Below are positions 265 to 32,900 of a stretch of DNA of 64,000 nt, in pieces. The notes beneath the pieces were generated by a model. It had not been told where the DNA came from. It saw only the letters and a program-made list of their open reading frames with translations, and searched no databases. The stretch's first letter is position 1. Each line of letters starts with the position of its first letter. The DNA is taken from the NCBI GenBank assembly GCA_000004695.1, contig CM000151.3:2400001-2464000 (forward strand). The letters are read 5' to 3'. Both the position numbers and the translations under genes were made by a program. Source of the stretch: Dictyostelium discoideum (lineage: Eukaryota).

Positions 265-3200
265 ATGATCAGAAAACGAATACTATTATTAATTCTAATA
301 ATAATAGTAATATTACAAATTTTTAGGGTTGAAGGAAATCCAGCAATTCAAATTTATGATGTTTCTAGTGAAGAATACTCATATAATAAATATCCAACAA
401 ATACAAATGACAAATATTGTAATTTTTTTTTCTTAATATTTGTAACCGATACTTCAGATACTGGAGTTCAATTAAAAATAAAAACCAACGATTCAGACGC
501 AACAATTTCAACACCAGCATTTAAAAATATTTCAAGTCAAGTTCTTCCAATTTATGTAAATACTAAATCACCAAATGATTATTCATTATTAATTACGGCA
601 GAATATGATAATGATACATCAATTTATAGTAGTATTATAATTAATTATTCTTGTCAATGTTTGTATTGATTATTTTTTTAAGAAAAAAAAAAAAAAAAAA
701 AAAAAAAAAAAAAAAAAAAAAAAAAAAAAAAAAAAAAATTTAAATAAATAATTAATTAAATAATTAAATAAATTAAATAGATATTCCACGAGAATCAATG
801 AAAATAAATTTATATCATACTGGTAAATATAAGCATCCAATTTACCCATTTTCAACAATAATGTACATTACAGGATTAAAATACCCATTGGGTCAATTAC
901 AAGTTGACAAACCGTATAATGTAAAAGTTGATAATATAAGGCCATTTGTCTATCATATTGGTGACGAATTTAATGGATTTATTAAACCAGATTTTAATAT
1001 ATCACTATGGTTCATGGATAGTTCAAATAATACTTATTCATTAAATTATACAATTCCAAGTTTAATTTATTCAAGTAAGTAATTATTGTTATTATTATTA
1101 TTGTTTTTATTATTATTATTATTTTAAAAATTAATATATTAAATTATAATTTTAAAAATTCAGATTCAAATGTAAAAGAAAAGGATATTACATTTAAAAT
1201 TTATCCTAATCAAACAAATGTTATAGAATTTGGATTTATTTGTCCACCAATTTATTCTATTACATTAAATGAAACAATTGGATTAAGCGACCCATTGTTT
1301 ATTAATGAAAATATAGGTTTAAATCCATGGGCATCTTATGAAATGCCAGGAAAAGGTACAACATTCCTTGGTCAAGTTTCTTCCGATTATTCAATTGGTG
1401 CTCAAATTAATGGCACCTTAACTACAATTTATTATCAATTTTTAAAGGTCTCATGTAAGTTTATTATTATTATTATTATTTTTTTTTATTATTGTTTATT
1501 TTTATTATTTTAAAAAATCATTTTTGTTAATAATTTTAATAATATTATTATTATTGTTTTTTAAATATATAGATAATATTGATAGAAAATTTCCATCTTT
1601 TCAAATTGATTATTCACCACCATTACCTTCACTTTCATCAATATTTTCAATTAAATTTAATTCAACTAAAAAATTTGATTTATTCAATTATTCAATTAGA
1701 TGGTTTGAAAGTTTTTCAAATAGTTATAAATGGCCTTTTGGTTTCGAAAGTGGTCATAATTCAAATTATTCATTCAAGTCATCATTTCTACAATCTGAAA
1801 TCTCTGTAAATCCCTACAACTCACTTTATTTCAATCAAGATCATTCTTTAACGCAAATTAGTAATCAACAAGGTAATTGTTTTTTTTTATTTTTTATTAT
1901 TATTTAATAAAATTATTATATTAATTAAAATAATTTTATTATAAATAATAGTTGTGGATATAAATACATTACCAATATTAGAATTAGAATCATTTAATTC
2001 TACTCATTTATATAATCAAGTTTATTTATTTAAGATTAAAATAAAACCAATTTATCAAAGTAAAGGGTACAGTACTTTTATTAAAATTAATGATAATGTT
2101 AATCAAGTATTAAGATATGACTCAATGCCTGATATCGAAAACAATATATATGAAACTGTTTTAAATTTTCATGAAGGTATATTAAATAGTTTAAATATTG
2201 GTGATTCTTATTCAAGACAATCTCAATTTTATAATCCATTTCAATATTATTCAATTGATCCACTTTTAAAACTTGATTTTAAATATTCTGATATGATTTC
2301 AGTTTTAATTGGTAATGTAACTTATTTAATAAATAACATTGATGTAACAAATAAATCAGTTGATAATATAATTTATTTCAATTATAATGGTACTCAAGAA
2401 CCTAAAGATGATACAATTAATTTCTCATTTTTAATTTTATCTCATGAGTTTAAAGTAACTGGAGTCGTAGATTATGATAATATTACAACTTCAATTTGGA
2501 ATTCAACAATTTCAAAATATCAAATTAAATTTACAGTTCCTGCAAATACTAGACCTGGTCCACTTGGTTTTGCTTTACTTTGTGGTTATTCAAGTTCATT
2601 AATAAGTGATTTCTTACCTTTATCTTCTCAATTAATTATTGAATCTAAACATTTCGATGAATATGGACCAATATTTAGTAATATTGAAAAAGTTAATTCA
2701 ACAAATGAATTTGGTTGGAAATTTACAATAGATGATCCAATTAATGGTTTTGATTATGCTGATATTATAGTTAGAGGTGAAATGGATAGTTCAACTTATA
2801 AATTCCATTTAACAACTCAAAATTTAACAAGAGGTGATAAATTTAATGGTGATTATCAAATTAATATAACTTTACCAAGTAAATGTGCATCTCAAAATTA
2901 TATTATCACACAAGTTAAATTATATGATACTCAAGGTTATTTAGGTGAATTTTCAGTATCCAGTGGATTTAATGGTATTAGAAATGTATTTATAAATTAT
3001 TTATCAGATCCAACAATAAATAAAGTATATAAAACATGTAGTGGTGAAAATGATGGTATCGATAGTTCACCACCAATTTTAACTTCATTCATACCAATAT
3101 TAAAACAAAATAGTGATGGTACTCAATACTTATCATTCAACTTTGAAGCAGTAGATATTGAAAGTGGTTTAAAAGATAAACAATATCCAATTGTTTATAT

Positions 3201-29906: not shown

Positions 29907-32900
29907 TCAGTTCATTTTTTGTAATTTACTTTGTACATTTCTTAGGAATAAATCTGATTTTCTGTTTTTCACAACCAAGTAAACAATTGATACAATAACT
30001 ACAGCAGCAAAAGCAACGGAACCAATAATAATACCAGCGAGTTGAGCACTTGTTAGTTTTGATTTATTTGATGTACAAATTGAATTATTATCATTATTTG
30101 ATACTGGTTTACTATCTACTAATACTGAAAAGTCTGGATCAATAATTATTGACTGTTTATAATTTGGTATTGTAATACCAATGAATGATTGTGATATTGA
30201 TGATGTTTGAATTGAGTTCATTTTTGAATCTAATAATTGATTTTCAATTGAAGATACTTTTGAATCGATGATTGCTCTTTTAATGAATCTACCATAAAGT
30301 GAATGATCATCAATTTGAATTTTAAAGAAGTTTGAATTATCACCATCGCTTGTATCTCCAAATTCTTTTAATGAGCAAGTATCTTTGGAATTTGATGATT
30401 CGAATAATGCTGACATTACAAGTTGAAGACTATTTAATTGATTTAAAAATTTATATTCTGTAATTTCAATTGTATATTTAATACTTGATGGATTCATTGT
30501 TATATTACTGTTAGCGAATTGAATGATTTTTGTTTGATTGAACCATTCTAAAGTTACAGTAATATTAGTTGTTAATGGATTTGTTGATTTTGGATCACCA
30601 CTTTGAATACTTGTAAAGTATTGACTTTTAATATTATTAATTGGTGTATAAATCCATTTATCAAATGTATATAAATTAACTTGATTCGAATTAAAATCTA
30701 ATTCTCTTAATGATACAATTGAAATCAATGATTTGAATAAATAATTTGTACTATTTGATGTTTGATTATTGTTATCGATAATTGGTAATTCAGTTGATGG
30801 TTGTGATGTATTTGTTGATGGTTGTGGTATAATTATAACTTGTGAATTACAATCATTACCAATCCAAGGTGGATAACAAATACATCCACTTGATGAACAA
30901 ATACCTTGTTTTGATCCACCACATACTGGTTCACCTAAACATGTTTGAGGTTTATTCGTTGGTATTGGTGATAATGGGGGTAATAATGTTGGTGTAGGTG
31001 TTAAAGAAGAAGATGATGATGATGATGATGATGAATCAATTGAAGTTGAATCGTCAGATGACAATTTAAAAGTCAATGGTAAAACATTGAATATTTTGGA
31101 CTTTTTGTTATTTGATTGATCAAATGCTTGTATAATGAAAGGTTCATCCGTTGGTTTAATATCTTCTATTAGAATAGCACTTGAATAAACTGTTGTTGGT
31201 ATTGAAATTTGTGTAAAATTTGAATCTCTATTATATTTTATATTTATTCTAATTGATAAATTTAAACCCCTTCCGACAATCCATAATTTACCACCACTAG
31301 ATGTGATTTGAGATACTCTAATGATTTCAATCTTTCTCAAAATTCCAATTTGAGTCATTGAATATTTAAATGATAAATTATTTAATGCGTCACTTGAAAA
31401 ACCACTATAATAGCCACCATTATTAATGAATCCATAAACACTGAATATAATATCTGATTTGTAACCAAATCCAGTTGGTAATTCAATTTCACATGTATAA
31501 TTTACAGTTGTTTTTGTTTTATTTTGAATTTGAGCTACACCTTGAATCACTTGTAAATCGATAGTTTGAATGTAAACTATTGGATATTGTTTATCTTTTA
31601 AACCACTTTCATTATCAGCTGCTTGAAAATCAAATGATATTATTTGATCATCATTATTTGTTCCAACTTTTTTAACAGCATTAAACCAATTTAAAATTGG
31701 TGGTGAACTATCGATACCATCATTTTCACCACTACACTTTTTATATAATTTATTTATTTTTGAATCTGATAAATAATTTATAAATGGATTTCTAATACCA
31801 CCACTAAATGATTCAGATACTGAAAATCTACAAGCATTACCTTGAGTATCATATAATTTAACTTGTGTGATAATATAATTTTGAGATGCACATCTACTTG
31901 ATATAGTGATATTAATTTGATAATCACCATTAAATTTATCACCTCTTGTTAAATTTTGAGTTGTTAAATGAAATTTATAAGTTGAACTATCCATTTCACC
32001 TCTAACTATAATATCAGCATAATCAAAACCATTAATTGGATCATCTATTGTAAATTTCCAACCAAATTCATTTGTTGAATTAACCTTTTCAATATTACTA
32101 AATATTGGTCCATATCCATCATAATCTAAATAGTAGTAAATAAAAACAAAAATAAGATATTTAGATATTTTAAAAAAGTAATAATTTATTATTATTATTA
32201 TTATTATTATTATTATTATTATTATTATTATTATTATTATTATTATTATTATTATTATTATTATTATTATTATTATTATTATTATTAGAAATTTAATAAC
32301 TTACTTTCTGATGTTACAAATAATTGTGCTGACAATGGTAAGAATTCACTTGATAATTTTGAACGATAATTTAAAATTATTAAATAAGGAACTGAACCAG
32401 GTTGGATATTTGCTGGTATTGTAAATTCAACTTGGTATTTTAAAAGTGTAGAATTCCATATTGCATATCTTATTGAATCATATTGAATATTACTAATATC
32501 ACTATAGGATACTGTATCAGTTAAATAAAAATAAGGTAATCTATTTGGATCAATTGTACCATTATAATTAAAGTAAATTACATTTGTTGCTGATTTATTT
32601 GTTACATCGATATAGTTATACTTGAATGATACATTTTCAATTAAAAAATTATTTAAATTCTCTGATGGTTCTGAATATTTTGCAAGTGGGTCCGTTGAAT
32701 AATAATTATTAACTAAATAACTTTTCATTCTATTTAATGAATCGAAAATGTAAAAATTTCCTAACCCATAATTTTTAAAAAAGTCAAAAACTGTTTCAAA
32801 AACCACTACTTCATTATCTTCTTCTACAATTGATTCATACCTTAAAATATTTGAAAAACCTTTAAGTGCTATAAAATAATCAAATGAACTTTTTTTTATT

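Follow-up and report, generated by a model that had tools for sequence, protein, structure and literature searches.

A tandem cluster of ComC-like membrane protein genes in Dictyostelium discoideum, with segments very probably homogenised by recurrent gene conversion

Five ComC-like genes in one cluster

The subject of this study is a group of five paralogous genes, here called c1 to c5, in a stretch of 64,000 nucleotides from Dictyostelium discoideum AX4 (positions 2,400,001 to 2,464,000 of contig CM000151.3, assembly GCA_000004695.1, forward strand). We refer to this whole stretch as the window. The large open reading frames across 1-35 kb of the window represent a single protein family, and the GC content is about 20-26% over its entire length. 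Within these genes, segments that are nearly identical in DNA alternate with strongly diverged ones, a mosaic that very probably reflects recurrent gene conversion between the copies. The gene models are the following.

c1, 265-4860, + strand: five exons (265-658, 781-1074, 1164-1454, 1573-1872, 1952-4860), splice sites read; intact frame of 1395 amino acids
c2, 8810-13313, + strand: five exons, 1378 amino acids; model mapped from c3, identical to XP_644342.2
c3, 14215-18740, + strand: five exons, 1380 amino acids; translation identical to P0001 / XP_644341
c4, 20797-25625, + strand: extra intron and premature stop codon; corresponds to P0080 / XP_645075.2
c5, 34759-29907, - strand: inverted with respect to c1-c4; six exons, 1408 amino acids; corresponds to P0010 / XP_644336

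Exon-by-exon mapping placed the AX4 protein P0001 on c3, P0010 on c5, and P0011/P0080 on c4. The protein derived from our c1 model is 95% identical to P0007, but an exact look-up in the protein collection returned no match for it; the AX4 annotation of c1 is therefore either absent or unlike the present model. A database search with c2 as the query gave matches from Dictyostelium only. The c2 and c3 genes are 93% identical over 4.6 kb, c3 being a recent tandem duplicate of c2. The window is a piece of AX4 chromosome 2, which has a duplicated part. Both P0001 and P0010 have two AX4 accessions apiece, and c4 exists in two AX4 versions with an F/C difference at residue 12, the window having the XP_645075.2 version. 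The existence of two accessions for several proteins fits the duplication, and the window appears to fall in the duplicated segment.

In Pfam scans, every copy tested, c1 included, matched DUF7035, DUF7034, the EGF-like DUF7949 and the ComC supersandwich domain (ComC_SSD, PF22933). The ComC_SSD scores for c1, c3, c4 and c5 were 46-68 bits, compared to a gathering cut-off of 24, and the three other domains were found in the expected order with it, with E-values from 1e-14 to 1e-37. The same set of Pfam domains is precomputed for 70 homologs. Read by eye, the translations start with a hydrophobic N-terminus and have one C-terminal hydrophobic helix (LAGIIIGSVAFATVVIVSVVYLVV), followed by basic residues with a KNRKS motif. 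The five proteins are thus probably ComC-like type I membrane proteins, with a predicted layout of signal peptide, divergent N-terminal modules, DUF7035, DUF7034, DUF7949, ComC_SSD, one transmembrane helix and a short tail. The 3' end and the stop codon are separate for each copy. No match to IPT/TIG domains was found at E<=0.01 in the full-length c3, c4 and c5 proteins, and Pfam scans of the copies gave no match to cadherin domains. The five genes belong to the family with the ComC_SSD architecture, and they do not encode Tgr or cadherin proteins.

All introns with readable junctions are in phase 1 (for example 658/781, 1074/1164, 14620/14724 and 23247/23389), the junction of c5 intron 1 not being resolvable. 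These introns divide the genes into symmetric 1-1 exons, a layout that permits exon shuffling. One intron more is present in c4 and c5 than in c1-c3. It has the same position and phase in both genes, at the first residue of DUF7035, and contains a trinucleotide run that is perfect in each gene and different between the two.

Extra intron of c4, 23248-23388, + strand: phase 1, GTAAGT...CAG, contains (TAT)27; c1-c3 are without this intron
Extra intron of c5, 32126-32304, - strand: phase 1, (TAA)34 on the coding strand; position and phase as in the c4 intron and in the corresponding intron of the D. citrinum gene k3

Near-identical blocks and their limits

The blocks were located with a two-state hidden Markov model (HMM) applied to each gene pair, together with sliding nucleotide identity. 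The mosaic is displayed by the genomic alignment and by the codon alignment of the large terminal exon alike. The original prediction, made from the sequence of the window, held that copies 4 and 5 have diverged from copies 1-3 over exons 1-4 and the first half of exon 5, and that identical blocks alternate sharply with diverged ones. Both statements hold: protein identity between c4/c5 and c1-c3 is only 21-42% in exons 1-4, as in the first part of the large exon, and nucleotide identity switches abruptly between about 55-66%, in the long stretches outside the blocks, and 96-99%. Three blocks, which we call A, A2 and B, are 95-99% identical in DNA across all five genes.

Block A, 287 nt: c1 2651-2937, c2 11161-11446, c3 16585-16871, c4 23389-23675 (+ strand), c5 32125-31839 (- strand); 96-99% identity by HMM
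Hypervariable patch between A and A2: c1 2938-3010, c4 23676-23754, c5 31838-31786, c2 11464-11480, c3 16888-16904
Block A2, about 75-95 nt: c1 3011-3083, c2 11521-11593, c3 16945-17017, c4 23755-23827, c5 31785-31691; 95-97% identity in all copies
Pro/Thr(/Ser) linker of variable length: c1 3717-3785, + strand; (AACACCAACAGA)n in c1
Block B, part common to all five copies, 975 nt: c1 3786-4760, c2 12239-13213, c3 17666-18640, c4 24551-25525, c5 30981-30007
Block B, full extent: c1 3786-4857 (+ strand, up to the stop codon), c2 12239-13265 and c3 17666-18684 (+ strand), c5 29910-30981 (- strand, to the last sense codon)

Block A encodes the first ~100 residues of DUF7035, and its identity by blastn is 97.5-99.3%. 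It begins 41 codons upstream of the motif GEMDSS, at the first exon base after the extra c4/c5 intron, which constitutes a heterology of 141-179 nt at its 5' end. The first identical block of the original prediction is thus real, but it is longer than the 162 nt quoted there. Block A2 covers the end of DUF7035 and the linker to DUF7034 (FINYL...CSGENDGIDSSPPIL); it had escaped the earlier description, as had further tracts that c1 has in common with c2/c3 over most of the middle region. The patch between A and A2 is different even in c2 and c3, which are otherwise near-identical.

The 5' limit of block B is in all copies the Pro/Thr/Ser linker, the length of which is different in each copy. 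By HMM, the block measures 975 nt against c4 and up to 1063 nt against c5, so that the last identical block, correctly recognised in the original prediction, extends over 0.98-1.06 kb and not ~1.3 kb. For c1, its identity to the other copies is 97.6-98.5% over 975-1092 nt (HMM, blastn). It contains the EGF-like DUF7949, ComC_SSD and the juxtamembrane region, plus, except in comparisons with c4, the transmembrane segment and the tail. Accordingly, at its 3' end it reaches the stop codon in four copies (c1, c2, c3 and c5) but stops at the transmembrane segment in c4. The renewed divergence noted earlier in the transmembrane segment and tail of c4 was found at 25526-25622, a stretch in which c4 matches c1, c3 and c5 with an identity of 57-59%. 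In blocks A and B, exact matches between c4/c5 and c1-c3 have maximum lengths of 62-246 nt, compared to 14-33 nt in the diverged parts. The block limits (intron, linker, stop codon) are the same in D. citrinum.

Synonymous sites in and outside the blocks

Synonymous divergence was expressed as pS, the proportion of synonymous differences according to Nei and Gojobori, in sliding windows of 40 codons; pN is its nonsynonymous equivalent. The divergent first part of the large terminal exon is referred to as ex5a. Uniform synonymous divergence along exon 5 had been named as the pattern that would speak against conversion tracts, but pS per 40-codon window was 0.3-0.8 outside the blocks and 0.00-0.13 inside. 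In regional comparisons of c4/c5 with c1-c3, pS was 0.30-0.54 in ex5a and the middle region versus 0.02-0.13 in blocks A and B (0.02-0.13 in A; 0.03-0.06 in B, for comparisons with c1). For exons 1-4 taken with the first part of the large exon, pS was 0.3-0.5. Of the codons whose amino acid is the same in both copies, 2-4% are different in the blocks versus 21-30% outside (Fisher test, p 1e-14 to 1e-21). The block limits for this test were set post hoc from the data, and we judge the effect far too large for that to matter.

The blocks are also the most constrained parts of the proteins. Their pN/pS of ~0.2 is the lowest observed, compared to 0.4-0.8 for ex5a orthologs, and distant family paralogs have 55-70% amino-acid identity in the blocks versus 25-45% elsewhere. 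Between c2 and c3, pN/pS was 0.7-1.9 in the N-terminal exons, which is not significant, the counts being too small. In the hypervariable patch, pN was at least as high as pS in nearly all pairs, again with counts that are too small. Positive selection on the patch and the N-terminal exons was considered and cannot be claimed from such numbers.

Comparison with D. citrinum and strain FIW

A locus of D. citrinum (L001) contains three genes of the family, k1, k2 and k3, the third of which also has the extra intron. In neighbour-joining trees of ex5a, the groups c1+k1, c2+c3+k2 and c4+k3 each had 100% bootstrap support, while monophyly of the species had 0%. In blocks A and B the situation was reversed: species monophyly was supported at 100% and the ortholog pairs at 0%. 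The one-to-one orthology in ex5a argues that the gene copies, namely the lineages c1, c2/c3 and c4, are older than the split between D. discoideum and D. citrinum. In the alignment, the three D. citrinum paralogs have species-specific substitutions in common over the full length of blocks A and B. In the blocks, pS between species (0.14-0.27) comes close to the ortholog pS in ex5a (0.28-0.39), whereas pS within species is 0.02-0.13, which argues that the block sequences coalesce after speciation. In the middle region, c1-c3 and k1-k2 also cluster by species while c4, c5 and k3 remain apart; exchange is therefore broader within the c1-c3 subgroup.

Six family genes were found in strain FIW, at two loci (L002 and L003). 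In block B the mean nucleotide distance was 2.0% within AX4, 3.1% within FIW and 4.0% between AX4 and FIW, and all distances among AX4 copies (<=2.7%) were below all distances between AX4 and FIW copies (>=2.9%). The corresponding values were 2.9% within D. citrinum and ~9% between AX4 and D. citrinum. Overall, c1-c5 differ from their FIW counterparts by 4-6%. Hyper-polymorphism of the family at the strain level was considered and rejected: an excess cannot be claimed, flanking non-family genes also differing by ~3-5%.

The arrangement of the cluster also varies between the strains. An additional copy of the c2/c3 type is present in FIW, where the orthologs of c4 and c5 stand directly tail to tail; the AX4 gene at ~26312-28084, between c4 and c5, is located beyond c5 in FIW. 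Two orphan fragments of the family lie in the window.

7163-7450, + strand: 73-82% identical to the ex5a region of c1-c3; within a 3.5-kb AX4 segment (~5095-8664) that FIW lacks between its first two genes
25867-26037, - strand: 89.5% identical to c4 24270-24434, inverted, directly downstream of c4

Evidence for recurrent exchange in block B, and the c2/c3 pair

Among the five AX4 copies, 43 of the 975 sites of block B vary, and 31 of these are singletons. The 12 informative sites define eight different partitions of the five copies, and 37 of the 66 site pairs fail the four-gamete test. Such incompatible site pairs indicate that exchange has been recurrent, consisting of many short events and not of one.

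The recent duplicates c2 and c3 differ more in block B (pS 0.050) than in ex5a (0.018). They are 97-98% identical outside block B, and inside it they are no closer to each other than other pairs are. Such an excess of differences is what a pooling of block B among the five copies would produce.

Some other features of this pair were observed. Exons 2-4 of c2 and c3 differ by 7-15%, versus 3% for introns 2-3, and synonymous differences amount to 0.09-0.11 in exons 2-4 versus 0.018 in ex5a. These contrasts point either to the overwriting of a part of one copy from a different source or to a re-homogenisation of the gene in its later part. Two patches have an identity of 43-65%: 11464-11480 / 16888-16904, in the loop between A and A2, and 13258-13271 / 18685-18698, in the cytoplasmic tail. 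In both, pN is at least as high as pS, with counts too few for a test.

A premature stop codon in c4

The c4 reading frame is interrupted within block B.

24849-24851, + strand: in-frame TAA in c4

At this site the 12 other copies examined have CAA (AX4 and FIW, including the FIW ortholog of c4) or GAA (the three D. citrinum genes). The AX4 and ACTFIT models of c4 skip the TAA by means of an annotated 72-nt GT..AG intron at 24781-24852, the sequence of which is ordinary coding sequence, 99% identical to the paralogs. With this supposed intron removed, the ComC_SSD match of c4 begins at profile position 32 instead of 6, with a loss of 26 positions. The AX4 model of c4 (XP_644339 / XP_645075) thus conceals a premature stop codon in an invented intron, and in the AX4 lineage this gene is probably either a young pseudogene or truncated.

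Explanations for the mosaic

The best explanation for these observations, which we hold with high confidence, is recurrent interlocus gene conversion that homogenises the blocks among old tandem paralogs. The five genes are old ComC-like duplicates, and most of each gene retains its own history. Recurrent non-allelic conversion would overwrite three segments, namely the start of DUF7035 (block A), the DUF7035/DUF7034 junction (A2) and the membrane-proximal ~1 kb (block B), and these segments would consequently evolve in concert within each genome. The inverted c5 appears to join in this exchange, and so does c4 despite its premature stop in AX4. Tracts are probably confined to the blocks since only these retain identical runs, of 100-250 nt versus 33 nt or less elsewhere, long enough for homologous pairing; the strongest purifying selection also falls on them. 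Extension of the heteroduplex probably halts at large heterologies: where c4/c5 have their additional intron, at the Pro/Thr/Ser linker and at the AT-rich 3' flank. In the order that we propose, constraint would have kept the segments pairable, conversion would then have locked them together, and heterologies would end the tracts. The original prediction, that conversion homogenises the stalk while the N-terminal modules diversify, is supported in its first half by the silent sites and by the conflict between ortholog and species trees; for the diversification there is the c2-c3 pN/pS of 0.7-1.9, which is not significant.

Several points weigh against this explanation. Conversion events were not seen directly, all of them being deduced from the sequences that three genomes have today. 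Neither an indel nor an intron is present at the 3' end of block A or at the hypervariable patch, and heterology alone therefore cannot account for every boundary. Selection against conversion may operate at these two places, but for the variable parts these data do not separate such selection from a simple loss of homology. The GC content at third codon positions is not raised in the blocks (0.05-0.10, versus 0.07-0.15 elsewhere), so there is no mark of GC-biased conversion, and that variant of the process was discarded. Finally, the recombination check recommended earlier, a permutation of the longest runs between polymorphic sites in the style of GENECONV, reached significance in most pairs, but the signal was weak in c2-c4 and c3-c4 (p 0.06-0.07). 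When five copies are homogenised jointly, few polymorphic sites remain in the blocks, which lowers the power of such a test, and it was replaced by the contrasts at synonymous sites and the phylogenetic conflict across species. We also considered RNA-mediated conversion via cDNA, prompted by the start of block A at a splice site; a tract never spans an intron, so this found no support.

Could the genes be chimeric instead, having acquired a common 3' module by one or a few unequal crossovers or module swaps, with no conversion going on? The tandem layout would favour this, and unequal recombination has evidently occurred here, as seen from the c2/c3 duplication, the differences in copy number and order between AX4 and FIW, and the gene-fragment relics at 7163-7450 and 25867-26037. 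However, three blocks broken up by diverged sequence within one gene need double exchanges, the inverted c5 participates, and the incompatible sites of block B together with the clustering by strain and species need repeated events in each lineage. We therefore consider this account improbable. Another possibility is that the duplications are recent, the blocks reflecting their true young age and the N-terminal and middle regions having diverged very fast through hypermutation or diversifying selection. A pN/pS near or above 1 between c2 and c3 in exon 2, ex5a and the tail would be in line with this, as would a small hypervariable patch that differs even between these two genes. Against it, for the divergent parts there is a clear one-to-one orthology with the D. 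citrinum genes, supported by 100% bootstrap, and the synonymous sites of these parts are near saturation, which is not a product of selection on amino acids; it seems to us very improbable.

Purifying selection by itself would require that the blocks are simply the most constrained domains, little changed since an ancient duplication. They are indeed the best conserved parts across the family, with the amino-acid identities and low pN/pS described above, but constraint on the protein predicts neither homogenisation of silent sites (pS 0.02-0.13 versus 0.3-0.5) nor grouping by species. Paralogs within a species have species-specific changes in common, silent ones included, and form species clades with 100% bootstrap, by which purifying selection alone is contradicted. 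If an overlapping function at the nucleotide level (an RNA element, for example) were invoked across species, the 8-10% divergence from D. citrinum would speak against it. We regard the role of constraint without exchange as hardly plausible. An artefact of assembly, in which reads from different paralogs were collapsed in their most similar parts, has to be kept in mind for a window that appears to lie in the duplicated part of AX4 chromosome 2. Paralog families of Dictyostelium are, moreover, error-prone with short reads (bioRxiv 10.1101/2025.10.22.684067). But every copy has variants of its own in the blocks, 31 of the 43 sites that vary in block B being singletons, and the independent assemblies of FIW and D. 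citrinum repeat the pattern with block sequences of their own. We attach next to no probability to such an artefact.

Other repeated sequences in the window

Repeated sequences are also present further along the window, in the following places.

48993-56169: three tandem paralogous segments with 67-76% mutual identity and cytochrome P450-like sequences; the open reading frame 49296-50276 ends in a heme-binding-like motif, FSIGPRNCV
61009-61915 / 63074-63991: a further repeated pair, 79% identical

Relation to known systems and significance

Recurrent conversion confined to part of a gene has precedents. In the variable exons of the clustered protocadherins, as cited in a review, conversion homogenises a particular part of the ectodomain while the rest remains diverse (Noonan et al., 2004, via Ohta, 2010, PMC3966226). 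Like the cluster described here, these are tandem genes for single-pass, adhesion-type membrane proteins, and in trees of the homogenised part the branches are very short and specific to a lineage. They differ in being composed of cadherin repeats, and in that their variable exons are spliced to shared constant exons, whereas in Dictyostelium every copy is complete as a gene and includes a transmembrane segment and tail of its own. In RHD/RHCE and similar two-locus cases, classic examples of conversion balanced by selection that are summarised in the same review, polymorphism is shared and near identity extends over most exons with one distinct segment, which is interpreted as a block to conversion by selection or divergence (Innan, 2003, in PMC3966226). 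Here five loci are concerned, homogenisation affects less than half of the gene, and the pattern is replicated in two species.

Within Dictyostelium, interlocus gene conversion or recombination has been proposed for the tgrB paralogs (bioRxiv 10.1101/2025.10.22.684067). The tgr allorecognition genes (tgrB/tgrC) resemble the present cluster in that they are clustered, polymorphic genes for type I membrane proteins, accompanied by pseudogenes, with a mosaic pattern and intermingled paralogs (bioRxiv 10.1101/2025.10.22.684067). Tgr proteins, however, consist of IPT/TIG domains (PMC4931340), while the present proteins consist of DUF7035, DUF7034, DUF7949 and ComC_SSD. Conversion in tgr is discussed as a source of diversity, whereas its visible effect here is a homogenised constant region. 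The D. discoideum gene comC (communication mutant C) is listed as "has EGF domains, S+T" and as developmentally essential (PMC4931340). ComC has in common with the five proteins the ComC_SSD signature, which is named after it, together with an EGF-like module and probably also a signal peptide and a transmembrane segment. Our search of the open-access literature found no prior description of conversion in the ComC-like family, only tgr being discussed in this way. The case is a new and well-resolved example of a well-known process, a clear but ordinary instance of concerted evolution, and its interest beyond Dictyostelium genomics is modest.

It is tempting to go further and to speculate that the cluster constitutes a second cell-surface recognition or adhesion code of Dictyostelium, in which variable, rapidly evolving N-terminal heads are presented on a constant, membrane-proximal stalk of EGF-like and supersandwich modules. 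The stalk may be kept uniform by gene conversion restricted to its domains, as all members would have to dock to a common partner or to each other, and the system may be a functional analogue of the clustered protocadherins or Tgr, built from an unrelated fold. Hints in this direction are the relaxed or elevated pN/pS of the N-terminal part, the hypervariable patch differing even between c2 and c3, the strain differences in copy number and order, and the family tie to the developmental signalling gene comC. We consider such a code unlikely.

For the genomics of the group there are practical consequences. Neither the mapping of short reads nor the calling of orthologs will be reliable in blocks A and B, and trees based on the C-terminal third of the proteins will wrongly suggest species-specific expansions. 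The cluster provides a protist case of domain-restricted concerted evolution, replicated in two species and two strains, with tract ends mapped to an intron, a low-complexity linker and a stop codon, and these mapped ends will be useful for asking what stops conversion tracts. As regards the family itself, the pattern marks what is constant in these ComC-like surface proteins, the EGF-like and supersandwich module, and what is variable, the N-terminal modules.

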